Source: a virus
IMG/VR virus record: IMGVR_UViG_3300023238_000004
Reading direction: 5' to 3' (one strand)
DNA length: 64,000 nucleotides
Shown in pieces: positions 24,495 through 45,711 of the stretch. A program made the position numbers and the translations under genes. The notes beneath the pieces were generated by a model. That model saw only the letters and a list, made by a program, of their open reading frames with translations, ran no database searches and was not told the origin of the DNA. The stretch's first letter is position 1, and each line of letters opens with the position of its first letter.

Positions 24495-24857
24495 TTAGTA
24501 TCTCATTCCTTTTGGATCAAAAGCTCGTGATCTCTTCATTGGTTTTGTTTGAAAGAAGTCCTTGTCTACTCCCAAGATCTCTCCTAAGATTAAACCCCTA
24601 CCCTCGTGTCCGATCTTGAAATAGCGACACCAACCTTCATCGCTATGTTCGTAGGTGACAAATCTTTCCTTTGGAAAAATCCATCGCCCCTTTTGCTCAT
24701 TGATGGTTGGCTTTAGCTTGTTGTCAAACTTGATATCAATTCCATTGAACCCAAACTCAAAGCCGCTTGTCATGACTTGTTGCTTCGCCTTGAACACGTC
24801 TGGATGCTCTTTCAAATATCGAAATGTAGTTTCGTGCATATACATTACTCTATTCAT
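24495..24857 (-). CDS. Hypothetical protein, 120 aa
   Basis: ORF track; TAATG overlap with the upstream gene. Confidence 0.55.
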   Translation of the reverse strand: MNRVMYMHETTFRYLKEHPDVFKAKQQVMTSGFEFGFNGIDIKFDNKLKPTINEQKGRWIFPKERFVTYEHSDEGWCRYFKIGHEGRGLILGEILGVDKDFFQTKPMKRSRAFDPKGMRY

Positions 24858-25195
24858 TAGTATGTCACCTTGTTGTTTTCTGATATTTTTTTACACATAC
24901 GGATAAACGCTCCTTGGTCTAGGGACATTTTCATGTTATTTACATACTTATGAACCCACTGAACGTTGCCCTCCTTTATGCCTGTTAGATAGCCACAAGA
25001 GATGTCTCCATAATCAACACTTTTTCTAGTACGACAGACGCATCTGCATTTAAGGTCTGATTTTTGGTATCTTCTTTCTGCCGTCTTACCACAAGCAGAA
25101 CAAAACACCTCGTATATCTGAAAACCATTGTGGGACTTTTTAACGAACTTTCCTACGGTCTTAGTCCCAAAGACTTCTCCTGTGTGACTCTTCAT
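24857..25195 (-). pseudogene. Internally deleted HNH homing endonuclease
   Basis: The N-terminal Cys-rich DNA-binding part (CSACG...CRC) joins directly to the C-terminal GNVQWVHKYVNNMK...FIRMCKKISEN. The SxDRIDS catalytic core seen in 45025-45711 is missing. Confidence 0.65.
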
Positions 25196-26961
25196 ACTGC
25201 TACCTTACCAAAGTCAATCTTGTCAAGGGGGTTGTATCCTACGAGTCCCACCTTGTCGTGGGTCCAGTTGAAGATATCAAACTCATTAGGGGCCATTAAG
25301 TTTTGAACATTAGGGTCCAATTCAATAGAGGGCAAGGGTTGCGGCTCTCTTTGGACTTGCTCAATAGCTCCATCTAGTTGATTTTCATAGATATGACAGT
25401 CAACAAATACGCCTGATAGATTGCCCACTTCCAACCCGGCATCTGCGGCCAATAGGCTTAAAAGTAAGCCATAAGAAGCGATGTTGAAGGGCACGCCTAA
25501 CATCAGATCTGCACTACGCTGAGCCCAGAAGAGATTGACCTTGTTATCGATGACTGTGACATTCCAAGCATAGTGACAGGGTGGTAGGGCCATCATGTGG
25601 ATCTGATTGGGGTTCCATGCGGAACAGACCATTCGTCTGTCCATAGGGTTGGTGCGAAGAGTCTCAACGATGTTGGCTAGTTGATTAGTGCCAGTCTTAA
25701 TCTTTGGCCTAGTATCTAAGTTTTCTTTTCTATGGAAACACCATCCACCATGGGTCTTTGTTTTGCTCTTTATAGAAGCTTCTACTGTTTTGACATTTAG
25801 ATTGTATTTTCTACAGAATCTAGCTAAGCCATACTCGTTAAAGAACGTATTGTTGTTTGGGTCTACAGCGTCAAAATAGTATTGTTGGCTAGTATGATTA
25901 GCGTTGTCTTCTCTAGTGGTCCATTGACACCCCCTAAGTCCATAAAAGCCTAGTCCATTAATGTCTTTGTCTAAGTGGTATCCAGACCAATTATCTAATT
26001 TAAACTTCCATCCGTTTACTCTTTGAATGTCTCTTAAAAAGTTCTCGAATATTAGCCAGTTATTGTGAACATAGATTCCGTAAGCACCATAATTTTTATA
26101 ATCTTTGTTGCTTTTATCATAGCATCTTTGGATCATTTGTCTCCATTGGTTTTTTATCGCCTCTACCGTGGATTCCTTATCTTCTTCATAGTGAAGATCT
26201 GGAATCTCAACATCTTTATACTCTCCCATGCAAGCGACACCGCATACCGATGGATAATATGGATCGTAGATTTTCCCTTCTTGTACTTGTGATTTACACA
26301 AATTATCTTTTACAAATCCACTAGTATGAAACTTTACTGAGAACCTACAATTGCAATGCCTGTCTTTGCCGTCGTATGATACTACTGTGTATATCCCATT
26401 TGTCCCATTGAATTCTTTGCCAACTAGATCGAATGGACAATTTTCACTCAGTGAGACCTTAATTGTCTTATTTAGTCCTGTTGTTATTTGTGGAACTGGA
26501 GCATAGTCTCCATCAAAATTAATCCAATTCGCACCATATATGGGACCAAGGCAATTAAGTTCTTTTTGGGCGGCTTTCTTTCGAGAGTTGTATTCTGCAT
26601 TAGATTCTTCATGACTCATTGTGTCGTCGTGAGAGTATTCCTGCATATACTGGTGCCCCTCTACCGCCTCGGGGTTACACCATTCTGACCAAATCTTACA
26701 GTTTCGGTCTTGAAACCACTGCTTGTCTGTGATCCCTTTGATAAATCCTTCAAGTTCGACTCTGATTGCTTTCCAAGCCATCTTTTTCGTCGTAAGTAAA
26801 GGAAACCCATCCCGCATTTCGTGAGAAAAGAAAACGTTAGGTACAGCTTTAGTCCTAATACCCCCATCTACTGGCTCCCATGTGTTACCGACTTTTCTGA
26901 CTGGAGACTTCCACTTGCCGTCTTCCAAAACCCTACTTACCATATCAATGTATTGTTTCAT
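25192..26961 (-). CDS. thyA: Thymidylate synthase with an in-frame HNH endonuclease insertion
   Basis: GFPLLTTKK, LGPIYG, RRMVCSAWNP, ALPPCH, QRSADLMLGVPFNIASY and DCHIY motifs; 589 aa. Confidence 0.95.
   Translation of the reverse strand: MKQYIDMVSRVLEDGKWKSPVRKVGNTWEPVDGGIRTKAVPNVFFSHEMRDGFPLLTTKKMAWKAIRVELEGFIKGITDKQWFQDRNCKIWSEWCNPEAVEGHQYMQEYSHDDTMSHEESNAEYNSRKKAAQKELNCLGPIYGANWINFDGDYAPVPQITTGLNKTIKVSLSENCPFDLVGKEFNGTNGIYTVVSYDGKDRHCNCRFSVKFHTSGFVKDNLCKSQVQEGKIYDPYYPSVCGVACMGEYKDVEIPDLHYEEDKESTVEAIKNQWRQMIQRCYDKSNKDYKNYGAYGIYVHNNWLIFENFLRDIQRVNGWKFKLDNWSGYHLDKDINGLGFYGLRGCQWTTREDNANHTSQQYYFDAVDPNNNTFFNEYGLARFCRKYNLNVKTVEASIKSKTKTHGGWCFHRKENLDTRPKIKTGTNQLANIVETLRTNPMDRRMVCSAWNPNQIHMMALPPCHYAWNVTVIDNKVNLFWAQRSADLMLGVPFNIASYGLLLSLLAADAGLEVGNLSGVFVDCHIYENQLDGAIEQVQREPQPLPSIELDPNVQNLMAPNEFDIFNWTHDKVGLVGYNPLDKIDFGKVAV
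25693..26508 (-). mobile_element. In-frame HNH homing endonuclease domain (~272 aa) inside thyA
   Basis: WRQMIQRCY...YKNYGAYGIYVHNNWLIFENF...LDKD...CQWTTREDN plus a C-terminal NUMOD1-like HTH. No C/S1 or HN/C intein termini; AT-richer than the flanks. Confidence 0.85.
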
Positions 26962-27142
26962 CTTATCCTCCTAATTCTTCCACGATGTCGTTCATACTGT
27001 CTGTAATGTCATTCACGTAGTTTGTGAAGTAGTCTTCAATCTCTATTTCCGTAAAGTAGCGAGGATGATTTTACTCCTTCGTGATCTACATTCAAAGACC
27101 CAGCCATGACTTCTAAAATTGTGTATGGAGCCATGTTAACTC

Positions 27143-27595
27143 CTAACCTGCTTGAATGATTTCTTCAATAACTTCACCTAGATCTTCTCTAAGCTCTACT
27201 CCATACTCTTGGCATGTTATTTCTAAATTCTTTCTTCGGAAATACCCCTGGGGGCACACAACAGCAAGAAAAACATCTCTCTCAAGAGCTTGACCTAGTT
27301 CCAACAGTGTTACTGGAGACTTGGTATTAGGATCAAAATAAAACAAGATGTACTCAACCCGTCTCAAGTAGTGCTGTTCCCATAGAATTTGTGCTTCTAG
27401 TTCAGGACTGTCTTCTGTCCAGCTACTATCCCAGTCGTCCCTTCTTGGGTCGTAGACGTTGTACAGGTGGCCAATTTGTGCCCCTACTCTCTTTTGCCAC
27501 TCTTCTGCGACCCCCATTTCAATGGAGCCAGCTAGAAATACAGAGGGCAAGCTTTCGTCTCTCTCTGTGTCTGTTCCTGGTTTAATTACGGGCAT
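27143..27595 (-). CDS. Nucleoside 2-deoxyribosyltransferase-like protein
   Basis: VFLAGSIEMG...WQ...PRRDDWD...QILWE...TLLELG pattern. Confidence 0.75.
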   Translation of the reverse strand: MPVIKPGTDTERDESLPSVFLAGSIEMGVAEEWQKRVGAQIGHLYNVYDPRRDDWDSSWTEDSPELEAQILWEQHYLRRVEYILFYFDPNTKSPVTLLELGQALERDVFLAVVCPQGYFRRKNLEITCQEYGVELREDLGEVIEEIIQAG

Positions 27596-27726
27596 CTTTC
27601 ACCTTTGGCCATTCGTTGTAAATGTCTGTCGCCCCGCATACTTTGTTCTTAATCTTTCTGGCGTGTCTTTTCTCCACGGCCACTATTACTTCATGAATCT
27701 CTTGCTTTTGTTTTTTTTTCTTCTTT

Positions 27727-28008
27727 CTAGGCAGAGTGCTTCTTCCTTGTGACCCATTGAATTATTCTCTCTATAGTGGAGGGTTCTTTGTGTTTGCCAA
27801 TGTCAAAGGCGTGATTAGCAATGTGAATCATATCTCCACCACCAATTAGTGCGATCTCCCTAAATCCAGCTTCCATGTCTTTTGTAAAAGGTATACCAGA
27901 CATGTAGAACTTAGTACCGTAGGCTGGACACATCTTGTGCGTCCCTTCTCTACAGCAGCCTCGACACTTGTCAAAGTCTTCATGCCAAATATCAAGTGGT
28001 TTTTGCAT
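27727..28008 (-). CDS. Hypothetical protein, 93 aa
   Basis: ORF track; Cys cluster CRGCC...C. Confidence 0.5.
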   Translation of the reverse strand: MQKPLDIWHEDFDKCRGCCREGTHKMCPAYGTKFYMSGIPFTKDMEAGFREIALIGGGDMIHIANHAFDIGKHKEPSTIERIIQWVTRKKHSA

Positions 28009-30276: not shown

Positions 30277-30277
30277 G

Positions 30278-31015: not shown

Positions 31016-31406
31016 AGTTGAATCCGTTGAGTGTTAGAGTTTCAATTTGTAGTCCAGATCTGCGAATGATCTCTTTTACTGTTGGGACTGACAAGAGAGA
31101 ACGGCAAGAATACACAATGGTGTTGAAGTCTTGGTCGTTCATCTTCCCCTTGATAAGTGCCCGACACAGCATCCTAGCATCTACTCCATTAAACCTTAAC
31201 AGCCCACCACGTCTAAGTTTGCACGATAGGGCGGTCAAGAATCCGATTGAAGCCTCAAGGGGCAGACTTGCAAAACAGTTCTGTACTGAGATCTCTTCAC
31301 ACTCGTTGTCTGAAATGTGGTCAAGATTAACATCTACGCCTGTCATATAGACAAACTCATACCCGGTTGGTCCCTTCTCGCCTGGGTTCAAAATCATTAG
31401 TTTCAT
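30993..31406 (-). CDS. Truncated methyltransferase-like protein, 137 aa
   Basis: DHISDNECEEI...KLRRGGLL pattern resembles the C-terminal half of class I methyltransferases; no SAM-binding GxGxG seen. Confidence 0.4.
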   Translation of the reverse strand: MKLMILNPGEKGPTGYEFVYMTGVDVNLDHISDNECEEISVQNCFASLPLEASIGFLTALSCKLRRGGLLRFNGVDARMLCRALIKGKMNDQDFNTIVYSCRSLLSVPTVKEIIRRSGLQIETLTLNGFNYDVTATR

Positions 31407-32398
31407 AAACTTGCCTCGTATGTTTTGGTGAAGATTTCATTCCACTCTTGAACAAATCTGTCCGAAGAGCATTTATCAAGAACTGTCTGCCTAGCGGCCT
31501 TTCCTAGTTTCTTGGCGTAGTCAGGGTCTCTAGCGAGCCTGTCAAGAGCCTTAGAAGCTTCCTCTGAGGTATTGGCGATTAAACCATTAACGCCGTCCTC
31601 GACGAACTCAGAGATCCCACAGGTGCCAGTAGTGACAACTGGACACTCACAAGCCATCGCCTCTAGGAGACTCATCGGCATTGGGCTGTCCAGGGTTGTG
31701 TTCAGATAAGCTTGGCACTCGCTGTAATAGAACGCCAGTCTTTCTGAATTGCCCTCACTAACAAACGTGTCATTGATTTGATCGCTGTTTTTTCCAATAA
31801 CAGTCATCATGTACTTTTCAGTATTGTAAAGCTCTTCCCACATCTTGTAGTTTAAGCAATAGTCTCTAGCCTTATAGTCGTTTGCTACTGTTAAGATGTA
31901 TTTGCCCGTCCTTTCTGTTTTTGGACTAAAGACATCTGAGTCAACACAGTGATGAATCACATTGTTGTTTTTCTGAATACCAACACTAGACCAAACATAG
32001 TTTGAATGATGCGTAATGAAGATATTAACATCACCAATCATGGCCCCCATTTGATTCAAAGCGGATTGGCTCAAGTCAATTGTGGGCGTTGTGTGCTCAA
32101 GGGCAATGATGGGGATCTGTAGCTTTTGATTGATCTGATTGGCTAGATCAAACTGCCCAAACCTGTTCTGTGACAAGATCAAGTCGTACCCATCGTAGGG
32201 ATAGAACTTGTCTAGTGGCATAAGGTGATAGTTGTCTAGTCCATAGTCTTCAACCGCCCCCATACCCTTAATGTTTGCAGCATAGAAGTTGTGACCAGTC
32301 TTGGCCAACTCTGTCTCGTATCTACGGTGAGTACAAAACGTTAATATATTTAATTTTTTCTTAGGTTCTCTTCTAACGTAATTAACTACATTTGTCAT
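31403..32398 (-). CDS. GT-B (family 4-like) glycosyltransferase
   Basis: YLNTT..SPMPMSLLEAMACECPVVTT...EFVEDGVNG motif. Confidence 0.85.
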   Translation of the reverse strand: MTNVVNYVRREPKKKLNILTFCTHRRYETELAKTGHNFYAANIKGMGAVEDYGLDNYHLMPLDKFYPYDGYDLILSQNRFGQFDLANQINQKLQIPIIALEHTTPTIDLSQSALNQMGAMIGDVNIFITHHSNYVWSSVGIQKNNNVIHHCVDSDVFSPKTERTGKYILTVANDYKARDYCLNYKMWEELYNTEKYMMTVIGKNSDQINDTFVSEGNSERLAFYYSECQAYLNTTLDSPMPMSLLEAMACECPVVTTGTCGISEFVEDGVNGLIANTSEEASKALDRLARDPDYAKKLGKAARQTVLDKCSSDRFVQEWNEIFTKTYEASL

Positions 32399-32474
32399 TG
32401 TTTTCTGTTATCCTTTTACATAGTTCCAAAAAGTAATCTTGATCGTGAGTCCATTTCATATAATTCACATGCTT
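32382..32474 (-). pseudogene. 3' stub of an HNH endonuclease gene
   Basis: Translates KHVNYMKWTHDQDYFLELCKRITENNDKCS*, matching the C-termini of 24857-25195 and 45025-45711. Contains the AAGGA RBS of the 32398 start. Confidence 0.65.
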
Positions 32475-32475: not shown

Positions 32476-33582
32476 TTATGCTAGAAGTAGCTCCTTCATT
32501 GTGTTGCCGACCAATTGGTGCGAGAAGTCCTTCGCCCTCTTTAAGCCTCTGGATCTTCTGTCCACTCTGTTCTCGTAGTAGTGTCGCATTGTTCTCTTGG
32601 CTTCGCTTTCGTCTATCTGCCTCCAGGTATCCCTAGCGGTAAACAAGTCTGGGAATGCAGCATCAACAGAATCGCACACAGAAGACTGACAAGAAACACA
32701 GTAACCAACCTCGTCTTCATCCCACTGAATGTACTCGCTAGTTCCAGGTAGGTCTGTCACAATGGGAGTATTGCCAAACGCCATCGCATCAAAGGCTGGA
32801 ATCGACCAAGCTTCTCCGTGTGAGAAGTTAAGGAAGCAATCACCATACTGATGAAGAGACATTATTTGATCTTCTGTGCTATGGCCGGTGATAACAAATT
32901 CTTTGTGATAGTCTTCTTTGTTTGAATACAGCCTAGATCTAATCTTTATGTTATTACAAAGCCCTTCAATCTGATGTTTAACCTTTTCTGCTGGGATGTT
33001 GAACTTATTAAGCTTCAATATCAGAGAAACAGGCTCAGACCTATCGAACTCGGAGTGAAAGCACCTAACCACCGATTCGATGTTCTTTCGATCATTAAAA
33101 TCAGAGATACAGTAGAATTTAAACGTGTGGTCGGCACCTGGAATCTTAACTTCTGGATATGACTTAGCATACTTAGTAGGATCACAACAGTGATGCACAA
33201 CAGAAGCCTTAAAGCCTTCCATAGACAAGTCACTCCTAAGGCCGTCGTTAGGAACCCAAAGTTCATCTACTAGTTGTAGGTGACTGTTCCAGTCTAAGTG
33301 ATTGGTCTCATATGTTTCAGAAACAAAGTAGGCTATGTTCTTCTTATACTTAGTAGTGCCCACTAGATGGTGGGGCAATACATGTTGCACACAATGAGTA
33401 GCGTCGTGACAATCCTTACGCTCAAACTCTACCAACTCCGGTGGAGTATTAACTTGTCCGGTAAGGTCAATGTTGCGACACACAACATCAACACCAGCGG
33501 CGTCGAGAGCTAAAATGTTGTCAAGTGCTGCTCGCCCCCACCCTGTCGGCTCATTTTGGTGACCCAAGTATAGCACTTTCAT
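32476..33582 (-). CDS. GT-B (family 4-like) glycosyltransferase
   Basis: MKVLYLGH...GWGRAA; SHGEAWSIPAFDAMAFGNTPIVT. Likely start 33582. Confidence 0.8.
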   Translation of the reverse strand: MKVLYLGHQNEPTGWGRAALDNILALDAAGVDVVCRNIDLTGQVNTPPELVEFERKDCHDATHCVQHVLPHHLVGTTKYKKNIAYFVSETYETNHLDWNSHLQLVDELWVPNDGLRSDLSMEGFKASVVHHCCDPTKYAKSYPEVKIPGADHTFKFYCISDFNDRKNIESVVRCFHSEFDRSEPVSLILKLNKFNIPAEKVKHQIEGLCNNIKIRSRLYSNKEDYHKEFVITGHSTEDQIMSLHQYGDCFLNFSHGEAWSIPAFDAMAFGNTPIVTDLPGTSEYIQWDEDEVGYCVSCQSSVCDSVDAAFPDLFTARDTWRQIDESEAKRTMRHYYENRVDRRSRGLKRAKDFSHQLVGNTMKELLLA

Positions 33583-33701
33583 TTTTGAGCTTCCACTATT
33601 TTTTTGCAGACCCGAATGAAGTCTGACTGATTCATGTCCATTTTCATTCTGTTTACGTCTCTCGTTACCCATTGGCAATTTTCCTTTGTATGGAGATATG
33701 G
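33579..33701 (-). pseudogene. 3' stub of an HNH endonuclease gene
   Basis: Translates (PYLH)TKENCQWVTRDVNRMKMDMNQSDFIRVCKKIVEAQK*; its TGA overlaps the ATG of the downstream GT (ATGA). Confidence 0.7.
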
Positions 33702-33715: not shown

Positions 33716-36421
33716 TTAGATTCTCTTTTGTTCCCAATAGTTCCTCTTCTCTGCTATCTTGAGCATTTCCCGGTAAGCTAGATCAAAGTTAAAGGGTATT
33801 CTTACCACCTTACCATCAAAACCTGCCGAACTCTCATTCTCATAAACCTTAGAGGTAGAAGAAGTCCTACTCTCATACATAAGGTCTCTAGTAAGACGAG
33901 ACTCAAACTGAGTGTTAAGTCTGTCAGGCTCTCCTAGTGCATTTACAATCAACCACTGAGCCAATTGCTTGTGCGTAGTCTGCGGAGGAATCTCTGGTTT
34001 TGGTTTTGGTTGGTGAATTCTTGGTGCAGACTCCCAAGTTTTCTCTACTGGTTCAATCTCGAATGAATCGAATACCTTTGCAAGTATGTCTCCAGTCTGA
34101 TCCCACTGATAATGCTTCTTAAATCTGTCTAAAGTTATGTGCCCCAAAGCGATCCTGTCTTCTTTGTCGATATCGAAGAACCTACCGAAAACCATCGCGG
34201 TGTCTTCGTTATCTGGAACGGCCCTATAGCATCCTGTCTCTAGTTCTTTGTATAGAGCTTTGGGCTTCAAGGGCACTCCGGCTAGATTGCTAACAACACT
34301 GCTCATAGCACTGTAGTCAACAGAAACAACGGGGATACCACAAGCAGCCGCCTCTACTTGTGGAAGGCCAAATCCCTCGCTGTTAGCATATTGAACATAT
34401 AAGTCAAAGCAATTCATCACTTCTGACAACTGTTCATAGCTAGCACCCTGCTTAACATTGCACATGGTGGCGTTGTATTTACCAGTGAAAGGCGATTCAC
34501 AGATAGCCCCCGCAAACAATGAAGCAAATGTCTTGTTGGTCTCTGGGCAAATGTAAGTAAAATAAACACTTGAAGAGACACAGTTCTGCTGTAGTAACTC
34601 TGGGATATCCCAACCTAGGTCTGGATAACTTGTGTGACAGTACAGCTTGTACTCATTAGGATTCTCTTGTTGCCCTAAGAACAGAGCCCACGCCTCAAAG
34701 AGATCTGGGTAAAGCTTGCGTCTTTGATTACGCATAACCGTGCCCACAATCTTTATATCCTTATCTAGCCCCAGGTTTTCTCTACAAACAGCTTGGTCCA
34801 TTGGCTTATACGCAGGATTAGCAGATGGAGGGGCTGTCCCAACATAGTTGATCTTCCCTCCAGACTGTTCCTTCATAACGTTGCCAGACCACTCAGAGTA
34901 AGACAGAACTGCGTCAGCACTCGCATAAGTACTAATCCACTGTCTAGCTTGTGGTGCTGAGTCTGCCGTTGGCATAATTACCCACTTGAACATCTTCCTA
35001 AAGGGAGATCGCTCTACAAACTCGCAATTATGAATACAAAAAGAAGATACATAGGTATTGTCTTCTTCTACTTCAAAGTTATGAACTTGTTCTCCATAGG
35101 ATTGTTTAATAACCTCTTTAACAGTTAACCAAGCGTAGCCATTTTTAATTCTTGTCGCTTTAGCTATTTCTTTATTGAGGAGGTTGTCATAAATAGTCTT
35201 AAATCCCTCTAAGCTATTAGACCTAAAAGAGAATATGTATCTAAAATAATCTTTGTCGATTCCTTTGATATTATTTTTATTTAGATTGAAGGATGGCAAT
35301 ATTCCAATCCTTAGGCACATCCTAAATACTTGGTGTGCTAATTGCTCACTCTTTGTGCAGTAAGAAGCTCTTTCCTTGTAATAACCTCCGTCACCCCTAA
35401 ATAAGCCACACAAAAACGACCTTATACACTCGTTATTTGAGAAAAACACCTCATCAGAAAGCTTCTTGTCTCCAGCCAAAGAACCGCAAAACTTTAGACA
35501 ATCTTGTGATATTCTTTTGCCGTAACACCTTACTATTGCCGTATTCCCAAGTATCTTTATTTTAGCTTCTTTATCATAAAAAACCTTAACAAGAGAGATA
35601 AAGTCATCAATATGACTAGACTCATTAGCATTAAAGGTTAACTGAATACCTTTGTATTTGTTGTCCTCTTTTAAGCCCTCGTACATTATGCAGCCTTCGG
35701 CCATATAGTAGCCTAAGAATCTACAAAAGTCATTCTTGTGATTTTTATCTCCCTCTTTGTCAATTGGGTAAACCAATATGTCGTTTTTCTCAATGCCTTG
35801 GGAGTCTACCCATTCTAAATTTTTAGGTGAAAACTTATGCACTGGTAGGCTTTTCTCTCCATTTCTTTTTAAGCAATAGACCGGATGATCGTCTGTTAGT
35901 TCTACATTAAATGGGCAATTTTGCACATTAATAGTGTGGAGATCTCCGAAATAACTCTTTTTAAATGTGTTTATTACTCTTCTATATCTTCCTTCGTGTG
36001 TTAAGACCAAGTCATCGACTTTTATGTCTTTGATCTTCTTGATGGAGTTTTTACATACGATATTAGTATTAGGAGTTAAGCACATCCAGAAGTCTCTGAT
36101 ATCAAAGACAATGTCTGGCTTAAAGTCTAGGCAAACTTCTTCAAAGATGAACTCGCCAAATTGATTGAAGGGACTTGAGTCGTATGACTGCATCTCTTCT
36201 CTACTAGCTCTAGGTTGAAACTCCTTGTTTGGTTGTACTCCATAGTACCTCCAAGGCAAAGATAGCCCCCTAGGATCGTTTCTTTGACCATAGGCGGCTA
36301 ATTCGGCTAGTTCGTATTTTCCTGTGGAGTTTAGATACTCCATGATTTCTCTAGTGTAGGTAGCATAACCAGTGTTTAGAAAGGTCGCCTCACTACAGAA
36401 GAGGATTCTTTTTTTTCTCAT
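33716..36421 (-). CDS. GT-B (family 4-like) glycosyltransferase containing a LAGLIDADG intein
   Basis: ILFCSEATFLNTGYA N-terminus; NSEGFGLPQVEAAACGIPVVSVDY motif; intein between FWM and CEF. Confidence 0.88.
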   Translation of the reverse strand: MRKKRILFCSEATFLNTGYATYTREIMEYLNSTGKYELAELAAYGQRNDPRGLSLPWRYYGVQPNKEFQPRASREEMQSYDSSPFNQFGEFIFEEVCLDFKPDIVFDIRDFWMCLTPNTNIVCKNSIKKIKDIKVDDLVLTHEGRYRRVINTFKKSYFGDLHTINVQNCPFNVELTDDHPVYCLKRNGEKSLPVHKFSPKNLEWVDSQGIEKNDILVYPIDKEGDKNHKNDFCRFLGYYMAEGCIMYEGLKEDNKYKGIQLTFNANESSHIDDFISLVKVFYDKEAKIKILGNTAIVRCYGKRISQDCLKFCGSLAGDKKLSDEVFFSNNECIRSFLCGLFRGDGGYYKERASYCTKSEQLAHQVFRMCLRIGILPSFNLNKNNIKGIDKDYFRYIFSFRSNSLEGFKTIYDNLLNKEIAKATRIKNGYAWLTVKEVIKQSYGEQVHNFEVEEDNTYVSSFCIHNCEFVERSPFRKMFKWVIMPTADSAPQARQWISTYASADAVLSYSEWSGNVMKEQSGGKINYVGTAPPSANPAYKPMDQAVCRENLGLDKDIKIVGTVMRNQRRKLYPDLFEAWALFLGQQENPNEYKLYCHTSYPDLGWDIPELLQQNCVSSSVYFTYICPETNKTFASLFAGAICESPFTGKYNATMCNVKQGASYEQLSEVMNCFDLYVQYANSEGFGLPQVEAAACGIPVVSVDYSAMSSVVSNLAGVPLKPKALYKELETGCYRAVPDNEDTAMVFGRFFDIDKEDRIALGHITLDRFKKHYQWDQTGDILAKVFDSFEIEPVEKTWESAPRIHQPKPKPEIPPQTTHKQLAQWLIVNALGEPDRLNTQFESRLTRDLMYESRTSSTSKVYENESSAGFDGKVVRIPFNFDLAYREMLKIAEKRNYWEQKRI
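35027..36082 (-). mobile_element. Intein (352 aa) with LAGLIDADG endonuclease
   Basis: Starts CLTPNT; block B LTDDHP; FLGYYMAEG and FLCGLFRGDG; ends VHNFEVEEDNTYVSSFCIHN with +1 Cys. Confidence 0.92.
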
Positions 36422-37161
36422 TGTTCTATTTTATTTCCTTTTTTGAAGTTATCAATAGCCCATAGGGGTTGTAGGTTTGTGTAATGCCATGCTATTTTTA
36501 GTTGATCTTCCATGCCATTAGAAGCAAAATCAAAGCTGCTTAATGGCCTTATATGATCTACATGCCATTCTCCATAATTTTCCCTAGTCATACCATCTTG
36601 GAATTTAGATTCTAAATAGTCCCAAAACTCTTCCGTTTTAAGCCCTATGTAGTCAAACGTTTTTAACTTCTTCTTTTGGCCCCTTAGTCCTCTTGTTATA
36701 CTATTCCTCATATTCCTGTTCATTCTTTGTATTGGGTCGGCATTGCTTTTCCTACTCTGTGCTAAGCATTTTTCTGGATTGTTCTTTCTCCAGGTTCTAT
36801 TTCGCTCCCTCCTTGCTTCTGTGTTGTTTCTACAATACTCTTGTATCTTTTCTTGATTTTTGAGGTAGTATTCTCTTGCACTCCTTTTTCGCCTTTCTTC
36901 ATACTTAGGATAACTTTCTTTCACCATTGCTTTATTACACTCTTTACAATAGCTAGGTTGACGTTTTCTATTACCTTGAGGATCTTTTTTATTTGTCTTG
37001 CACTTAGCACACAAAGTACTCACAGGTTTTCTAGGTCTTGGAGTATAGTACAAATCCCTAAGGCACCTTTTACATGTATTATTTTTGCCGCTTTTGTGAC
37101 GTTTGCTATTTCCAAAACGACTTTCATCAAGATATTCTTTGCATCTTCTACAGGTTTTCAT
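36418..37161 (-). CDS. Free-standing HNH homing endonuclease with CxxC repeats
   Basis: MKTCRRC...; GMTRENYGEWHVDHIRP...HYTNLQPLWAIDNFKKG; AGGGAG RBS supports a start at 37161. Confidence 0.85.
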   Translation of the reverse strand: MKTCRRCKEYLDESRFGNSKRHKSGKNNTCKRCLRDLYYTPRPRKPVSTLCAKCKTNKKDPQGNRKRQPSYCKECNKAMVKESYPKYEERRKRSAREYYLKNQEKIQEYCRNNTEARRERNRTWRKNNPEKCLAQSRKSNADPIQRMNRNMRNSITRGLRGQKKKLKTFDYIGLKTEEFWDYLESKFQDGMTRENYGEWHVDHIRPLSSFDFASNGMEDQLKIAWHYTNLQPLWAIDNFKKGNKIEQ

Positions 37162-37177
37162 TTTTGCTCCCTTGTCT

Positions 37178-37206
37178 ATTATAGTCAGAAGGTTTGGAAA
37201 AGACAA
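37178..37206 (-). promoter_or_regulatory. Sigma70-like promoter TTGTCT-N17-TATAAT
   Basis: Intergenic, immediately after the DnaE C-terminal gene; 17-nt spacer. Confidence 0.75.
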
Positions 37207-37207
37207 C

Positions 37208-39190
37208 CTAAATATCTGAAATTTTTTCAACGATCAGACTTCCGTCGCCCTTCTCTGAACTTCCGTAGATCATCACGTTGTTTCCTTCAAATAAGCTGTA
37301 CTTATTGTCTTCTCTCGCCTCTGGAAAGACCACAACGCTGTCAATTGAGCAGGTTTCGTCCTCAATGGTCAGGAAGGACATCTCTTTTCCCTTACTTGCC
37401 CCTTCTTTCTTAACCTTCGTGTTAAACACTCGGGTAATGTTTGCGGCGATTGTTAGCTTCTTGCCCTTTTTCCCGTCTGCTAGTTCCTTACAGGTTGTAT
37501 TGCCGCACATGTCTGTGGTTTCAATCTTAGACATAGAGACAGGGCAACCTAAGAACTTCACTTCCTGGTCAATGATCCACTCTGGATCGTCTTCTAGGTC
37601 GTAGGGTGGGTTCTGTAGCATCTTAATCTCGTTCAAGATAATCTGCTTTCTGGACTCTTTACTGGTCCCGCCGCCCTCTTTTTTTGTAGGTGCTAGATCT
37701 CTAAAGCAAGACTGCAAATCCTTCCATCTTCTCTTAGGGTAGTTTTCTATTACCCAGTTGGTCTCAGCCTTCGTCAAGATACGAAAGATCTCATAGTCAT
37801 ATAAGACCTTGTTTCTCGTAACCTTGTCTTTGATTCCACGGAAGAACCCAATAGACCCAAGCGTCTTGAATACCGTAGAGTTCACCTTAGGAGAGAAGAA
37901 CAACAAGATCTCCATCCACGATGTGTTCTCAATCTTTTTATTTAGATGTACAAATAGATCTTCAACAGCAATGAAAGCCTTGTCCCCATTCTTTCCGGTC
38001 AAAGACTTAATGTCCTTAATGCCAAAGTAAATGGTGTCTCCAACGCAATTGAATTGACGTTTGAAGTTAGCAATACTAGGAGTTTTCAATTGAAGATCAA
38101 AAAGCTTAGCTTCTGACGCTAGTTCATAAACCTCTTGGTGAGCGTCCTGCTTGTCTTTTGCGTAACGAAAATAGGCTACAAAGAACTGTTTGATATAGTG
38201 TGCCTTGAAATAAGCACTCCAATATGAATCCAATCCATAGGCAACCGCGTGAGAATTACTGGTGGCTATTTTATTAGCATAAAAAAGATGGCTATCACTA
38301 TCAACCTCAATGTCCATAGTGGGCATTGTGCCCAAGCTTTTTATTCTAACTATTTTACTAGATTTCATGTCTACACAATCTTGAACAACTATCTCGTGAA
38401 AATATAACAGAATATCAGAAAGAGGTCTAATAACACCATCTTTGCACAAGAATTTATGCTCCATTGTGCATTTTATAGTTTTACCACACTCTAGCTCTAA
38501 CTCATAGACCTCTAGTGACCCGTGGTCATAAGTCTCTAAGACTTTTACGTATTGGTCAGACAATAAACAGGGAGATAGTACAAAATCTCCAGCTTTAATT
38601 TCTGATAGCTGCTTTTCACCGTCTGGTGTTTGTACTACTGAATCCTTCGTAATAGACTTGTTAAAACTGTATCGAGCAGACTTCTCAATCCACCCGAAGA
38701 TTTCTTCTGCGTCTTTGGCTTCAACCGTCCCTACTTTCTCGCAACCAATGATAAAGTCTTCCTTGACCTTTGCCATCACGTCTGCTTTCTTTTTACCAAT
38801 GGCCTTTCTAAGAACATCAGCCTCTGACTCAGAGAAACCCGCAAGCTCTTTGGCTATAATCATAGCTTGTTCTTGATAGATCAAAACCCCGTAGGTTGGA
38901 GCTAAGAATGGCTCAAGAGAAGGATGTAGATACTCAACGGGTTCTAGTCCGTGCTTTCTGTCTACATAGTGCTGGGACATAGACTTGCCCTGATACATAG
39001 CTTTCAAAGAGCCAGGACGAAGAATAGAGATCAGAGCCGCAAGCTCTTCCATATTTTCTGGCTTGACTTTCTTGGACCACGATCTTCCAAGATTGCTTTC
39101 AAGTTGAAAAATACCCTTGGTTCTACCTTCCGCGAAAAGCTTCCAGACTTCTGGATCATTCATCGGAATATTATCAATGTCAACTGTCAT
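37208..39190 (-). CDS. dnaE: DNA polymerase III alpha (DnaE), C-terminal piece (fingers/HhH/OB) with a mini-intein
   Basis: GIFQLES, ILRPG, TYGVLIYQEQ, LRKAIGKKK, YSFNK|intein|SHAVAY, IYFGIKDIK, OB-fold MSFLTIEDET..IDSVVVFPE. Confidence 0.92.
   Translation of the reverse strand: MTVDIDNIPMNDPEVWKLFAEGRTKGIFQLESNLGRSWSKKVKPENMEELAALISILRPGSLKAMYQGKSMSQHYVDRKHGLEPVEYLHPSLEPFLAPTYGVLIYQEQAMIIAKELAGFSESEADVLRKAIGKKKADVMAKVKEDFIIGCEKVGTVEAKDAEEIFGWIEKSARYSFNKSITKDSVVQTPDGEKQLSEIKAGDFVLSPCLLSDQYVKVLETYDHGSLEVYELELECGKTIKCTMEHKFLCKDGVIRPLSDILLYFHEIVVQDCVDMKSSKIVRIKSLGTMPTMDIEVDSDSHLFYANKIATSNSHAVAYGLDSYWSAYFKAHYIKQFFVAYFRYAKDKQDAHQEVYELASEAKLFDLQLKTPSIANFKRQFNCVGDTIYFGIKDIKSLTGKNGDKAFIAVEDLFVHLNKKIENTSWMEILLFFSPKVNSTVFKTLGSIGFFRGIKDKVTRNKVLYDYEIFRILTKAETNWVIENYPKRRWKDLQSCFRDLAPTKKEGGGTSKESRKQIILNEIKMLQNPPYDLEDDPEWIIDQEVKFLGCPVSMSKIETTDMCGNTTCKELADGKKGKKLTIAANITRVFNTKVKKEGASKGKEMSFLTIEDETCSIDSVVVFPEAREDNKYSLFEGNNVMIYGSSEKGDGSLIVEKISDI
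38255..38656 (-). mobile_element. Mini-intein (134 aa), Ser1 ... Ser-Asn, +1 Ser
   Basis: SITKDSVVQTPDG; CTMEHKF (block B); MDIEVDSDSHLFYANKIATSN. Removal restores FNKSH. Confidence 0.88.
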
Positions 39191-40904: not shown

Positions 40905-40992
40905 CTTTGTCCTCCGATTTTCTTTCCGTCTTTGTCAATGACCACAACTTTGTCGCCTTCTTTGACTATCTTGGTTTCGTCTTGGCTCATGT

Positions 40993-41247: not shown

Positions 41248-42085
41248 TTAGTTCTTGGATTTCCATAAGCTTATCAAGCAACATGAGACCCAAGATATCA
41301 AATTTAACGTGACCCAGTGCTTCTAGGTCGTTCATTTCTAGTCCTGCAATCATTTCGCCATTCTTTTCTGGCAACATAGGACAAACCTTGTCAAGAGGCT
41401 CCCTAGAGATAACCACACCAGCGGCGTGTTTACCTTGACTCTTGAATGTGCCCTCAAGTCTAATAGCCTGATCGAAGTATGGAGCATAGTCACCTTTTAA
41501 GTTTCCCTCTTCATCTAAGTGGCACCACTGACGCAAGCTTTCTGGGTCATTGATGAGGGTCCATCTGATAATAGAACGATCCTCTTCATCCATCAATTCA
41601 AGTTGGTCAGAGATAGCCGCTTCATCAGGGATTGGCTTAGTCATAGCGTTCATTTCATTGAAACCACAAGCTTTGTTCATACGCAAGACTTCCTTGAGAG
41701 AACTTCTACCTTGAAGTCGCCCATAGGTAATCATCTGGCTAACGTTCTCTGCTCCATACCTATACTTGAGATAGGCAATCACTTCATCACGCTTATCTCC
41801 TGGAACGTCGATATCAATATCGGGCAGGGATACGTGTCCACGACCATAATCTAAAGACTTATTAAAGTCAGGTCTATCGGCCTTGTCGTAAATCCACAAT
41901 ACATAGCTATTATTTAGGTTTCCTTGACTATAAAATTCTCTATTTGAAATTAAAAATCTGTAGTATTCTACACATTGATCTATAGTAGAAATCAAATCAA
42001 GTTCATTTTGAAGATGAGGATTACGACGCACCTCCACAAGCTTGTCTTTGTTATGATTTATTCCAAAGTCTGTAATTTTTGCCAT
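41207..42085 (-). CDS. dnaE: DnaE catalytic (palm) piece
   Basis: SLPDIDID (two catalytic Asp), QMITYGRL, QGKHAAGVVIS, KFDILGL (third Asp). Confidence 0.92.
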   Translation of the reverse strand: MAKITDFGINHNKDKLVEVRRNPHLQNELDLISTIDQCVEYYRFLISNREFYSQGNLNNSYVLWIYDKADRPDFNKSLDYGRGHVSLPDIDIDVPGDKRDEVIAYLKYRYGAENVSQMITYGRLQGRSSLKEVLRMNKACGFNEMNAMTKPIPDEAAISDQLELMDEEDRSIIRWTLINDPESLRQWCHLDEEGNLKGDYAPYFDQAIRLEGTFKSQGKHAAGVVISREPLDKVCPMLPEKNGEMIAGLEMNDLEALGHVKFDILGLMLLDKLMEIQELIGEKKDECKETSS

Positions 42086-42292
42086 TTTGATTCCAATCTT
42101 ATTTTTCCTGATAAATAATCTCTAACTTCTAGTATTTGAGGTAGAGATCCATATCTTAGTTCGTAAAGCTCTTGATTTTTCTTTTTGTTAAGGTTTCCCT
42201 CGTAAGGAAGCTCAAACCTTATTATTTCAATATTCTTTCTTAAATAAGAACAAACTCCAAAACATTGTCTAGGGTAAAACTTCTTATATTTT

Positions 42293-42568: not shown

Positions 42569-42579
42569 GGTGCCACTTT

Positions 42580-42714
42580 CTAGCTTTGAGGTAATTTGTC
42601 TTTAACTTCTACGATTGTTTTCTCATTTATAATAAAGTCTGGAAAATACATCCTAAAGACACCATTTTCGTCTTCATATTCAATTGGGTTGTTATAATAG
42701 AACCCCGACCTAGA
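42580..42714 (-). pseudogene. Remnant of a PD-(D/E)XK endonuclease between the split-intein halves
   Basis: In frame after the IntN stop: SRSGFYYNNPIEYEDENGVFRMYFPDFIINEKTIVEVKDKLPQS*, with a YxPDF...IVEVK motif. Confidence 0.65.
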
Positions 42715-43896
42715 CTATATTTCTGTGATTTCGTCAAATTCTGTCAAGTCTTTTGCTGTAACCCAGCCTCTATTGCTCGTTAAGAACTTGTGATCTTCTG
42801 TACACCGAATAATTTTGCCGTTTTCCATGGTCATTTCAATTATTTCTTCATCCACTAGATAAGAAAGTGTATCTGCAACAATTTGCGAACCACCAAAAGC
42901 GTCTACAACGCTTTCTCCTTTCTTTATTATAGAGATTGGTTTCAATAAGCCGTTAGACATTCTCACCCTCGTGTCTGGCAAAAAGCACCCTCTTCCTGGT
43001 CCGCTGATCCAGCCCTTGCTTTTGATGAAGTTAATGATGTCCCATACAATCAAGAAATAACCAAACAGCTTCGCCCCCTTAATAACTCCAAACTCTTCGT
43101 TGAATTGGTCTAGGTATCTTTGCTTGGCTTCTTCTTTTTCTACTTTGCCCGTCTTCCCAAGTAATTCATTCCAGCCTTGTCGGCATAGCTGCTTTAGATA
43201 CTCTTCCTCGGACTCTCCATTTGGAGTGGGGAAGGTTGGCAACATTGGCTTCTCAAGAATATCATACTCTGTACAAGAGTCTACAATACTGCAAATATCC
43301 TCACAAACAACTGCGTGATCCTTGTTAGGTACGCCAAAGCTATCTTCTGTGAAGAACTTGATATAGGGTTTTAGTTCGTCTTGAACTTTACCCTTACCAA
43401 TATACTTCATCATGTCGGGAAGGGGCACCTTCAACCCAGAGCATAAAGAAATTCTATGAATATCTACCTCTGACTTGTCCGTGTAGAAGTAATTCTTAAT
43501 CTTCCCGCCCTTCAAGTAATTATCGCCACCTGGGCACAGTGGCGTCTGTTGCTTACGTCCAACATAGATCAAGTTACCACGTTTGCAGTACTCTTTGATG
43601 ACAGTCATTTCATCTTGGTGCTGAATAGCCGACACAATTGCGATAAGGTCAAACCAGCCATCTTTGTTTTTAGAAAACAGACTAAACCCATCAAAAGAAC
43701 ACCCAATGATTGGCTTTATACCAGCTTTCTTACACTCTTGAAAGAATCGGACAGTGCCCGAGATACTCTTGTAATCAGAAATACCACATGCGGTATATCC
43801 ATTGTCTTTGCATTTCTTAACTAAGGCCTTGGGTTTTGAGAATCCTAGTTGTAAGCTGTAGTGCGTGTAGTTACACAGTGGTGCGAAATTTTCCAA
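42715..43896 (-). CDS. dnaE: DnaE N-terminal piece (PHP domain to GPGRG) plus split-intein N-half (90 aa)
   Basis: THYSL, GIKPIIGC, YFLIVWD, GPGRG|CFLPDTRV...CTEDHKF...AKDLTEFDEITEI*; IntN spans 42718-42987; GGAGG RBS before a TTG start. Confidence 0.92.
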   Translation of the reverse strand: MENFAPLCNYTHYSLQLGFSKPKALVKKCKDNGYTACGISDYKSISGTVRFFQECKKAGIKPIIGCSFDGFSLFSKNKDGWFDLIAIVSAIQHQDEMTVIKEYCKRGNLIYVGRKQQTPLCPGGDNYLKGGKIKNYFYTDKSEVDIHRISLCSGLKVPLPDMMKYIGKGKVQDELKPYIKFFTEDSFGVPNKDHAVVCEDICSIVDSCTEYDILEKPMLPTFPTPNGESEEEYLKQLCRQGWNELLGKTGKVEKEEAKQRYLDQFNEEFGVIKGAKLFGYFLIVWDIINFIKSKGWISGPGRGCFLPDTRVRMSNGLLKPISIIKKGESVVDAFGGSQIVADTLSYLVDEEIIEMTMENGKIIRCTEDHKFLTSNRGWVTAKDLTEFDEITEI

Positions 43897-43924
43897 TTTT
43901 TCCTCCGGTTGGTTGTCCTATTCT

Positions 43925-43953
43925 ATAATAGTCGTCGGCGACGTAATCGACAA
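43925..43953 (-). promoter_or_regulatory. Sigma70-like promoter TTGTCG-N17-TATTAT
   Basis: Intergenic, upstream of the first dnaE piece. Confidence 0.7.
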
Positions 43954-43977
43954 CCGAAAACCATCAAAAATTTTTGA

Positions 43978-45021
43978 TTATCCTGGGCTTTCGTAGTAGT
44001 CCACTTTGAATCCAGGCTTTTTAAGCTTTTTAGTAGCAGCGTCTATGCCGTATGTCTTTATCGTGTCTTCTACGTGTTTACACTTCATCTTTCCCGTCTC
44101 TGGGTCTATTTTACTAAACTCGCAAACGTACTTACATTTCCAACTATTTCTAGCAGAAGATACTGGCCTAGGCTTTTTAGTATTGCTAATTTCTTCAAAC
44201 TTTTTTCTTAGATGTTCAAGAAACATTTCGTCATCTTCTTTTCCATACATCATAGAGAAAGGTCCGCCGTCTCTTAAAAAGAGTATAGTCATTACTCTAT
44301 TTTCTACTTCTGGATATAATCTGGATAACGCGTGGTTGTACAACAATAGCTGAGGGTCTTTTTGCAGCTTTGCGTAGTCTTTAACTTCTCCAGTAGCAAA
44401 GTCTTTTCTTTGGCCACTTTTGTAGTCTACAACCTCTATAGTGTTGGAGTCTGGCAGCATTACCGAATCTATCGTTCCCTTGATAGATAGTTGCATTTTT
44501 TTACCTTCATGCTCGAAGTGTGCCCAGTCCTTCTCTATGGGTAAATCAAAGTGCTTCTCAATCGCTAAAACATTACTAGTTCTTGGGTCATATTCTTTTT
44601 TCCAGTTTTTAAGTCCTACATACACAAGTTTCTCTACGAACTTGAAAGTATCTTTAATGGTCTCATCGTCAACCTTTTCAGAAAACTTTGGTTTATTGAA
44701 ATCTAGTTCTGGATGAGAGGCCCCATAGTAGTCATAGCTTCTCCTAATAAGGTCATCTACAAATTTGTCTGTATGCAGCCCCTTTTTAGTAAACTTTACC
44801 AATCCTATCGCGTCATCGATAAAAGATTGCTTATCTCCGTCTTGTAGTATTTTTTTACACTTACCTAATATCTCCATAACTCGATGCGTGCAGGTGCCAA
44901 GGACCGCCTTAAGACCACTTGCGTTTTGATACCCAAGTCCATATATTTGATAGTATTGCATCTCACAAAAACTATGACAACCTAAAGAACTGCTTCTAAA
45001 ATAAGGAATTAGTATCCCCAT
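43978..45021 (-). CDS. PD-(D/E)XK (RecB/Cas4-like) exonuclease with Cys cluster
   Basis: CHSFC near the N-terminus; IKGTIDSV...EVVDYKSG; QLLLY; C-terminal WKCKYVC. Confidence 0.8.
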   Translation of the reverse strand: MGILIPYFRSSSLGCHSFCEMQYYQIYGLGYQNASGLKAVLGTCTHRVMEILGKCKKILQDGDKQSFIDDAIGLVKFTKKGLHTDKFVDDLIRRSYDYYGASHPELDFNKPKFSEKVDDETIKDTFKFVEKLVYVGLKNWKKEYDPRTSNVLAIEKHFDLPIEKDWAHFEHEGKKMQLSIKGTIDSVMLPDSNTIEVVDYKSGQRKDFATGEVKDYAKLQKDPQLLLYNHALSRLYPEVENRVMTILFLRDGGPFSMMYGKEDDEMFLEHLRKKFEEISNTKKPRPVSSARNSWKCKYVCEFSKIDPETGKMKCKHVEDTIKTYGIDAATKKLKKPGFKVDYYESPG

Positions 45022-45024
45022 GTT

Positions 45025-45711
45025 TCACTCCTTGTGTTTAAGTATTAGCTCACACTGTTCATATAAGTATTCTAGTGTAAACTGGTTTTTCATTATGTTG
45101 ATATCTTTGTGAACTAACCAAATGTTGTCTTTGGTGTACCCTTCTTCGCTGTCTATCCTATCCACAGAGACGGTTTGACAATTTTGCTTCTCTTTTGTTT
45201 TCTTAAAAGCTATTGGCGTCTTGGTCATCGCACACAAGCCTCCTTGCTCTTCATACTTGTCCCAAATGTCTTCAATCGTTATGTTAAAGTCTATATTTCT
45301 TCTTTTTGCTTGACATTTTACAGAATGAAAAAACCTACCAGGAATTGTGTGGTGAGATCTTTGCCTATTGTGGAAATCCTCTTGTTTTTGACTATAGGTT
45401 TTTTCTCTAATGGTGATTCCGTGTTTTTCTAGTGCTTTTCTAACTATAGACTTTCTTTTGAATCCTCCTAGCTCAGCCACCTCTTTCAATGTCATGTTTT
45501 TGTCTACATAGTATTCTTCTAAAAATTCTTTTGTGAAAGTTTTAGAGCTATCATACACGTGACCTCTGCTAATGCCATGACGACTCAACGCCTGAGACAC
45601 AGAGTTTGAAGACTTGATGCCAGTCTCTTTGGTTATGACTTGGATGCTTTTAAGTTGATTTACATAGTGTTCTTCAAGAAAATCTTTGGTTAACATGTCT
45701 TTTGGTCCCAT
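45025..45711 (-). CDS. HNH homing endonuclease, apparently intact
   Basis: Two FTKEFLEExY HTH repeats; QGGLCAMTK...SVDRIDSEEGYTKDNIWLVHKDINIMK. Confidence 0.85.
   Translation of the reverse strand: MGPKDMLTKDFLEEHYVNQLKSIQVITKETGIKSSNSVSQALSRHGISRGHVYDSSKTFTKEFLEEYYVDKNMTLKEVAELGGFKRKSIVRKALEKHGITIREKTYSQKQEDFHNRQRSHHTIPGRFFHSVKCQAKRRNIDFNITIEDIWDKYEEQGGLCAMTKTPIAFKKTKEKQNCQTVSVDRIDSEEGYTKDNIWLVHKDINIMKNQFTLEYLYEQCELILKHKE

Follow-up and report, generated by a model that had tools for sequence, protein, structure and literature searches.

What are the spacers between the closely packed genes of a phage made of, and why do particular pieces of them persist? The question is raised by a 64,000-nucleotide stretch of DNA (hereafter the window), which is the minus strand of positions 108354-172353 of the IMG/VR virus record IMGVR_UViG_3300023238_000004 (175,823 bp, complete according to CheckV). 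The virus is a marine phage known from metagenomes only; megablast and tblastn searches of GenBank phages returned nothing similar or useful. From ~22 kb on, every gene of the window lies on the minus strand, and this region encodes a thymidylate synthase, a string of glycosyltransferases that is common to hundreds of metagenomic relatives, a fragmented family-C DNA polymerase, a primase and a helicase. An examination of the bare letters (the sequence-only reading) had suggested that several spacers in the glycosyltransferase/thyA part of this string are fossil 3′ ends of HNH homing endonuclease genes, left behind by repeated invasion and retained because the downstream genes came to depend on them for translation initiation. 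The identity of the spacers we consider essentially proven, by tail homology far beyond chance together with a series of alleles, and the repeated invasion is borne out by three junctions in the window and others elsewhere in the genome. That the tails are kept since the downstream gene needs them is well supported by the sequence, from which we infer the dependence with a probability of about 0.6.

Endonuclease tails at the gene junctions

Three junctions are at issue, namely A (between the glycosyltransferase genes GT901 and GT368), B (between GT368 and the glycosyltransferase gene GT331) and C (downstream of thyA), along with one intact gene of the same family (lengths of proteins are in amino acids, aa; ORF, open reading frame):

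45025-45711, minus strand: intact free-standing HNH-like gene, 228 aa; two helix-turn-helix-like N-terminal repeats, then nuclease core, then tail
33716-36421, minus strand: GT901, glycosyltransferase with a LAGLIDADG intein
33579-33701, minus strand: stub A, 3′ remainder of an HNH gene (~40 codons) between GT901 and GT368, matched by the tail model and by phrog_1035 (E 1.8e-6)
32476-33582, minus strand: GT368, glycosyltransferase, start at 33582
32382-32474, minus strand: stub B, 3′ remainder of a second HNH gene (~24-30 codons) between GT368 and GT331
31403-32398, minus strand: GT331, glycosyltransferase, start at 32398
24857-25195, minus strand: 112-aa HNH gene (the 112-aa ORF) with the catalytic core deleted, keeping the N-terminal Cys-rich DNA-binding part and the C-terminal tail

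For the 228-aa protein, 86 homologues were collected, 32 of them were aligned, and separate models were made of the N-terminal part, the nuclease core (about 68-69 columns) and the C-terminal tail (33 columns). The tail model, a hidden Markov model (HMM) derived from the 32 homologues, was run on the 9302 six-frame open segments of the whole 175.8-kb genome and gave six matches, with E-values from 3e-16 to 2e-4, the next best being E 1.7:

45034-45132, minus strand: tail of the intact gene, E 2.6e-16
24878-24970, minus strand: tail of the 112-aa ORF, E 6e-14
33594-33686, minus strand: stub A, E 5.4e-12
32403-32474, minus strand: stub B, E 2.3e-10
genome 99441-99790: tail copy outside the window, E 7e-12
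genome 94128-94769: divergent tail copy outside the window, E 2e-4

Thus, the stubs align significantly with the family. The four minus-strand copies of the sequence-only reading are real, their translation giving the peptides that it quoted (E 2.6e-16 to 2.3e-10), but its count of four falls short of the genome total of six. The copy at genome 99441-99790 has core and tail and lacks both the N-terminal domain and a start codon; its tail overlaps the ATG of the next gene, with AGGGAGG upstream. No orphan 5′ or core fragment was detected in the whole genome, where the core and N-terminal models match the three large copies only.

The family to which these tails belong is divergent. The intact protein matches phrog_3322 (E 7e-26) as well as phrog_3118 (2e-15) and phrog_8446 (1.5e-13), which are both annotated as 'HNH endonuclease', and the HNH protein of the relative L091 matches phrog_374 (2e-21), a family with the same annotation. 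None of the Pfam or NCBIfam HNH models matches the family, so that its core goes unrecognised, and a profile search of the PDB sequences yielded weak matches only, to the Cas9 HNH domain and PacI (E 0.17-0.22). The AlphaFold2 (AF2) model of the 228-aa protein (pLDDT 90) contains a beta-beta-alpha unit at residues 181-208 (strands 181-185 and 197-201, helix 202-208), and its best fold matches in the PDB are HNH nucleases (Cas9 HNH, Gme HNH and PacI), with a probability of 0.99 and a TM-score of 0.50 for PacI and modest E-values of 0.04-0.2. D184, R185 and N196 are invariant in the alignment, and N205 and K208 are nearly so. The usual catalytic His of strand 1 is replaced by an invariant Arg, the core reading DRID instead of the usual D-H, and catalysis is therefore only putative. 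The near-invariant His201 is Thr or Leu in the junction-A subfamily, though that subfamily is under purifying selection. Hence the HNH identity proposed from the sequence agrees with the PHROGs and the predicted fold but not with the Pfam HNH models; we assign the family to the HNH nucleases on the former two grounds, and regard its nuclease activity as putative. The part that survives in the stubs corresponds to strand 2, the motif helix and the C-terminal helix. The N-terminal domains of the family are modular, being either of the helix-turn-helix or of the Cys-rich kind.

The full-length HNH genes are under strong purifying selection (dN/dS, the ratio of nonsynonymous to synonymous divergence, 0.08-0.24), and between the relatives L203 and L090 the HNH proteins are 86% identical (dS 0.89) as against 68% (dS 2.5) for the flanking glycosyltransferase. 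As judged from these divergences, they are real, mobile genes that move horizontally apart from their flanks, and six paralogous copies coexist within one genome. An extended -10 promoter-like motif, GTGTATAAT, is found 41 nucleotides (nt) upstream of the intact HNH start (45752-45760, minus strand); it occurs four times in the window vs 0.4 expected, and also upstream of the full-length HNH genes of the relatives L090, L092 and L203.

Alleles at the three junctions

Junction A could be followed through 80 IMG/VR loci and five closer metagenome contigs with the gene order GT901, GT368, GT331 and a gene for a 137-aa protein. Two further features of the window bear on the comparison:

33716-33733, minus strand: shortened 3′ end of GT901, ending in WEQKRI before the stop codon; relatives run 6-7 codons longer
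33590-33594, minus strand: GGAAG, a weak Shine-Dalgarno-like motif within stub A, its GGA core 9 nt from ATG 33582

In 42 of the 80 loci the junction is empty, the two genes lying -4 to +3 nt apart (an ATGA overlap in 36, a distance within 3 nt in six), and the Shine-Dalgarno motif of GT368, often GGAGG, lies inside the last codons of GT901. Empty alleles thus do not carry the ribosome-binding site of the stub; theirs belongs to the upstream glycosyltransferase gene, and on this point the sequence-only reading is not refuted. By contrast, four of the five closest relatives (L203, L090, L091 and L092; GT368 64-71% identical) have a full-length HNH gene of 178-251 aa at this place, each with its own promoter and with a stop codon that overlaps the GT368 start as ATGA or ATAA. 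Stub A has the same geometry, its TGA overlapping the GT368 ATG (ATGA, 33582-33579), and at the DNA level it is ~75-80% identical to the tails of the full-length HNH genes that occupy this junction in L090, L091 and L092. It shares with them the unusual peptide KENCQW(V/L)xR, and its translation is almost that of the L091 tail. The 6-7 additional codons of GT901 in relatives are those that hold GGAGG for the next gene in empty alleles. Since GT901 is clipped to WEQKRI in the window, the deletion that produced stub A began at the very 3′ end of GT901, took away the promoter and continued through roughly three quarters of the HNH gene.

Junction A is also a hypervariable cargo slot in the 80 loci (L010-L089, about locus positions 3000-4500). 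About 35 of these carry 0.4-1.6 kb of cargo, one or two genes coding for FkbM-like and other methyltransferases, glycosyltransferases and unknown proteins, and most cargo genes, of whichever kind, have their stop exactly on the GT368 start (ATGA). The inserts of 620-800 bp found here in many relatives were considered as endonucleases and rejected, as they are methyltransferase or glycosyltransferase cargo genes. One locus, L022, contains a methyltransferase 3′ stub, the last ten residues of which are identical to those of full-length genes (19 of 25 nt matching). In L013 and L016 the spacers seemed to resemble methyltransferase tails at their 3′ ends, but the resemblance was not above background and was likewise rejected.

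At junction B, the relevant motifs are the following:

32411-32415, minus strand: AAGGA in stub B, 12 nt before ATG 32398, the only Shine-Dalgarno-like motif in range
32491-32496, minus strand: native AAGGAG in the M-K-E codons of GT368, intact but 93 nt from the GT331 ATG, with stub B between

An alignment of stub B with the tail of the 112-aa ORF shows 54% identity across 26 aa, and the reading frame of the stub continues for 17 nt past the GT331 ATG. In the relatives L090-L093 the two genes overlap by 8 nt and the AAGGAG in the GT368 M-K-E codons serves GT331. In L203, the closest relative, the contig ends within this junction, after a promoter, a ribosome-binding site and the N-terminal part of a Cys-rich HNH protein (phrog_374, E 1e-11).

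At junction C, a full-length and a deleted allele can be compared:

24973-24974, minus strand: deletion junction, a 186-bp (62-codon) in-frame loss relative to the ~99%-identical strain L094
24865-24871, minus strand: AAGGTGA, a Shine-Dalgarno-like motif in the tail, 8 nt before ATG 24857 of the downstream gene for a 120-aa protein

The 112-aa ORF overlaps the thyA stop with its start (ATGA) and the next start with its stop (TAATG, 24859-24855). In L094 (L094:3477-4001) the same gene, with 186 extra bases between 24974 and 24973, encodes 174 aa (phrog_3322, E 4e-21), which confirms that the window copy is internally deleted. A blastn comparison of L094 with the window and inspection of the flanks indicated that the lost 186 bp are exactly the core, including SLDRIDS, that both overlaps were kept, and that there is no clear microhomology at the ends of the deletion. 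The peptide SVDYGDISCGY of the 112-aa ORF was considered as a degenerate SLDRIDS core and rejected, given that L094 shows the whole core to be deleted. An exact-protein search with the downstream 120-aa gene found only the sister strain L094 and no empty allele of junction C, because the closest thyA-bearing relative, L095, is not syntenic there.

Taken over all junctions, full-length, core-deleted, stub and empty alleles are documented, with presence/absence polymorphism at junctions A, B and C, as the comparison of orthologous junctions was expected to reveal. The start geometry that had been read from the sequence (TAATG at 24859-24855, ATGA at 33582-33579, AAGGA at 32415-32411) holds throughout, with the addition of the 17-nt overrun of stub B.

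Start signals and the direction of decay

All five junctions of this genome at which a tail meets a following gene have a Shine-Dalgarno-like motif 6-12 nt before the next ATG, compared with a background of 12-19% of random coding 16-mers and 44-54% upstream of genes. The clearest belongs to the intact gene:

45028-45033, minus strand: AAGGAG in the last two codons of the intact HNH gene (AAG GAG TGA), 6 nt before ATG 45021

The ATG at 45021 is that of a gene for a 347-aa PD-(D/E)XK protein. The native signals of the empty alleles are lost at junction A and have been moved 93 nt away at junction B. By their sequence, then, the tails do appear to supply start signals. The stop/start overlap is the most conserved feature over all allele types; it hints at coupling of termination and reinitiation, which may be more important than the Shine-Dalgarno motif. 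No promoter- or terminator-like site was found within the stubs. Comparison of strains at ~99% identity revealed three polymorphisms within stubs, all at conserved HNH residues; therefore the stubs are no longer under HNH coding constraint.

We propose the following course of events. Free-standing HNH genes, each with its own promoter, would insert into the tight junctions of the glycosyltransferase/nucleotide-metabolism string and replace or displace the native initiation region of the downstream gene, which in empty alleles is situated in the final codons of the gene before it. Once the element is in place, the Shine-Dalgarno motif would be supplied by the terminal codons of the endonuclease gene, whose stop codon would overlap or abut the next start. 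If the endonuclease is later lost, only deletions that spare its 3′ end would leave the downstream gene translatable; erosion would therefore advance from the 5′ end towards the tail, which would remain, and would at times also remove some non-essential C-terminal codons of the gene upstream.

The direction of decay can be examined more widely. When 46 related genomes were scanned with the tail model, two further tail-only remnants came to light. The one in L193, between a polymerase fragment and an exonuclease gene, forms an ORF of 60 codons, which begins on the stop codon of the preceding gene and has AGGA in its last codons, 8 nt before the ATG; the one in L194 overlaps a primase start. All six decayed copies (stub A, stub B, the 112-aa ORF, genome 99441-99790, L193 and L194) keep the tail against the next start, and in five of the six the 5′ part is gone. 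Core-only remnants were not encountered in the 46 genomes, in which the core model of about 68-69 positions matches full-size genes only. In a tail-pattern scan of IMG/VR, the best 80 tails were all in intact genes, which gives no basis for counting stubs. Four short tail-bearing database proteins were considered as deletion remnants and rejected: L206 and L207 are cut by contig ends, and L204 and L205 are full genes disrupted by frameshift or nonsense mutations.

The tail homology, the series of alleles, the start/stop geometry and the bias in the direction of decay are matters of observation; as the cause of the bias, we infer selection on translation initiation. A number of observations weigh against this explanation. 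The one-sidedness of five remnants is a small sample, with a one-tailed p of ~0.03, and remnants shorter than ~20 codons or consisting of the variable N-terminal domain alone escape detection. Among 49 more diverse phages with this HNH family no stubs were found, so that the pattern is so far confined to this clade. At junction A, two cargo genes other than endonucleases left 5′ stubs, in L013 and L016. Stubs A and B have no start codon at the 5′ end that could drive coupling, their Shine-Dalgarno motifs are weak (GGAAG in stub A, a 12-nt spacing in stub B), and the intact HNH tail of L092 has no recognisable motif of this kind. The stubs, at 75-120 nt, are several times longer than an initiation region needs to be, and strain diversity is too low and sparse to gauge constraint within them.

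Many of these points would also be expected if the stubs were neutral leftovers, that is, debris midway through random deletional decay, with the 3′ bias arising from small numbers or from detection and with any upstream sequence serving equally well. The excess length of the stubs, the non-conservative polymorphisms inside them, the weak motifs of stubs A and B, the 5′ stubs of cargo genes, the lack of stubs in the other 49 phages and the point-disrupted, otherwise complete pseudogenes in L204 and L205 are all compatible with such decay. Nevertheless, the tail is missing in none of the six remnants whereas the 5′ part is missing in five; the core model is longer than the tail model and matches should be easier to detect, yet no orphan core was seen; Shine-Dalgarno-like motifs are present in all five tails of the genome, vs 12-19% of random coding 16-mers; and the 112-aa ORF arose by an in-frame deletion that preserved both overlaps. 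We therefore consider neutral decay unlikely, if well short of negligible. Retention of the tails on account of the downstream start, which we prefer, does not require the whole stub to be functional: the constrained part is probably the last ~20 nt, and the remainder neutral DNA awaiting erosion.

Alternatively, the remnants might be useful as translated products, the 112-aa ORF as a nuclease-dead DNA-binding protein, short relay ORFs in coupling ribosomes, or stub A as a 30-residue N-terminal extension of GT368. Stub A is also open in the GT368 frame, which is not its HNH frame, from ATG 33672, which has AAGGA (33686-33682) 9 nt upstream and would add 30 residues, and public gene callers chose a long, 398-aa form of GT368 starting at TTG 33678. 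Furthermore, the 112-aa ORF is in frame and overlaps its neighbours at both ends, the L193 ORF begins on the upstream stop, and the conserved Met of the N-x-M-K motif is an internal ATG in every stub. However, stubs A and B lack a 5′ start, conserved Cys and His residues are mutated among strains, three strains lack the TTG at which the gene callers placed the start, an open frame of 30 codons is not unlikely by chance, and all 30 aligned GT368 homologues start at MK(V/I)L. A function of the translated remnants thus seems very improbable.

The start of GT368 in one relative also counts in favour of the proposed course of events. In L203 (L203:2295-2325) the canonical GT368 ATG is ATA, which in this single metagenome contig could be a sequencing error, and the sole in-frame ATG belongs to the HNH tail, 8 codons further upstream; both ATGs are present in L090 and L092. 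Conceivably, insertion irreversibly rewires the downstream start, the native region being destroyed and the signals, in L203 even the start codon, moving into the tail, such that nuclease loss has to leave the tail, decay proceeds 5′-to-3′, and repeated cycles become a general source of spacers, relay ORFs and N-terminal extensions. We offer this broader scheme tentatively, as a possibility about which we are more doubtful than convinced. The terms 'ratchet' and 'domestication', used in the sequence-only reading, are plausibly a gloss on an ordinary constraint, namely that deletions must spare the initiation region of the next gene. In relatives, moreover, a 3′ stub derives from a methyltransferase gene and 5′ stubs derive from two cargo genes, so that the leaving of stubs may not be peculiar to endonucleases. 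The downstream genes are presumed to depend on the stubs, and no new mechanism is demonstrated.

Neighbouring mobile elements and known homing cycles

The glycosyltransferase/thyA stretch is unusually rich in selfish elements. The thymidylate synthase (25192-26961) comprises 589 aa, with its Pfam match in two pieces, and ThyA of the closest relative (L095:3179-4195) has 338 aa; the ~250 additional residues are in frame, lie in a surface loop and contain HNH_3/AP2-like motifs with no obvious intein ends. Other endonuclease families are represented in the same gene string by a 270-aa protein at 36418-37230, which matches phrog_1035 (annotated as endonuclease VII) and has an HNH-like C-terminus, and by a 258-aa helix-turn-helix and DUF559/Vsr-like protein at 23110-23886. 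Outside the window, a 548-nt spacer at genome 69334-69881 holds a stop-interrupted fragment similar to residues 77-112 of a 221-aa protein with a Cys-rich endonuclease-like motif (genome 74315-74980), and is probably a pseudogene of a second endonuclease family. In L204:365-2270, an HNH gene of the present family, frameshifted between N-terminal domain and core, splits the gene of the ribonucleotide reductase large subunit.

Strains also differ within this stretch. Window 27641-27968 differs from L094:754-1028 (a ~99% strain) by two indels, ~160 nt being specific to the window and ~106 nt to the strain, where the latter add a 70-aa Cys-rich ORF (L094:879-1091). Divergence between two ~99% strains reaches 2.8%, 5.6% and 11% in the 500-nt bins 34500-35000, 37500-38000 and 41500-42000; these bins adjoin the intein and the polymerase fragments, consistent with exchange boundaries associated with mobile elements, and gene calls in the polymerase region differ between strains (L004 vs L005).

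A further alternative is that the stub is a resistance scar, which keeps the endonuclease target disrupted after the nuclease has been shed, such that immunity to cutting and re-invasion by endonuclease-carrying relatives during co-infection is kept, where a precise deletion would recreate the target. Such a scar would be a consequence of the accepted homing cycle, where a target is restored whenever the element is lost precisely, and it fits the coexistence of endonuclease-carrying and endonuclease-free strains at ~99% identity in metagenome assemblies as well as the rise of strain divergence around the elements. However, a bias towards the 3′ end would be expected only if the target spanned the 3′ junction, and the targets of free-standing phage endonucleases often lie within a neighbouring gene rather than at the point of insertion (reviewed in PMC2988022). 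Accordingly, we regard a resistance scar as quite improbable.

The selective retention of tails through their role in initiation can be compared with several known systems. The invasion, degeneration and loss of homing endonucleases are described by the model of Goddard and Burt (summarised in PMC2988022), which shares with the present case the functional, defective and empty alleles at one site, an element shared more recently than its flanks, and decay after fixation. Unlike the elements of that cycle, the genes described here are free-standing between phage genes and not borne by introns or inteins, and their loss is imprecise and directional, leaving a 3′ tail joined to the start of the next gene, whereas the classical cycle assumes a precise, target-regenerating loss. 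The seg and mob genes of T4-like phages are likewise small nuclease genes wedged between conserved genes, with their own promoters, with overlaps and with several paralogues per genome, and their start/stop overlaps with neighbours, such as UAAUGA of nrdA/mobE, suggest translational coupling (Edgell, Gibb and Belfort, 2010; PMC2988022). In that review, overlaps at the 5′ end of the endonuclease gene are discussed as a brake on the expression of that same gene; 3′ remnants that serve a gene downstream are not described, and the words 'remnant' and 'pseudogene' are absent from the text. In contrast to the T4-like families, moreover, the present one has a divergent core, with DRID for the usual D-H, and is missed by the Pfam HNH models.

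Another parallel is the mobE insertion in nrdA of Aeromonas phage Aeh1, a case of 'genes in pieces' (Crona et al., 2010; PMC3045599), in which sequence that arrived with an HNH gene became a working part of the expression and assembly of a host gene; the splitting of a ribonucleotide reductase gene in L204 is a further likeness. In Aeh1, however, an intact element lies inside a gene and protein tails were co-opted, whereas here decayed, intergenic copies retain an initiation region. Spacers derived from pseudogenes that keep regulatory signals have been reported in Buchnera (PMC3164680), and phage islands of homing endonuclease genes contain gene fragments (PMC10055350). These cases resemble the present one in that spacers are decaying genes constrained in part by their neighbours and that small ORFs beside endonuclease genes can be fragments; they differ in that they deal with cellular pseudogenes or with fragments of essential cargo proposed as recombination substrates, with no endonuclease tails on start codons. 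In the open-access literature text we found the general framework, and no description of 3′-biased endonuclease remnants tied to downstream starts. The present case is a directional twist on the known cycle of endonuclease invasion, decay and loss.

The claim is a modest one, the underlying constraint, that a deletion must spare the ribosome-binding site of the neighbour, being ordinary. Homing endonuclease genes are commonly regarded as neutral parasites whose arrival and departure leave no trace; the series of intact, core-deleted, stub and empty alleles suggests that their removal is constrained by the neighbouring gene, and that what stays behind is a permanent, directional scar of the parasite, which assumes a task of the host, the initiation of translation. 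If general, this would explain some of the anonymous spacers and small ORFs of phage genomes and would furnish a rule for annotation, namely to look for endonuclease tails just upstream of start codons. Furthermore, it could offer a simple system for studying the entanglement of selfish elements with the expression of host genes.

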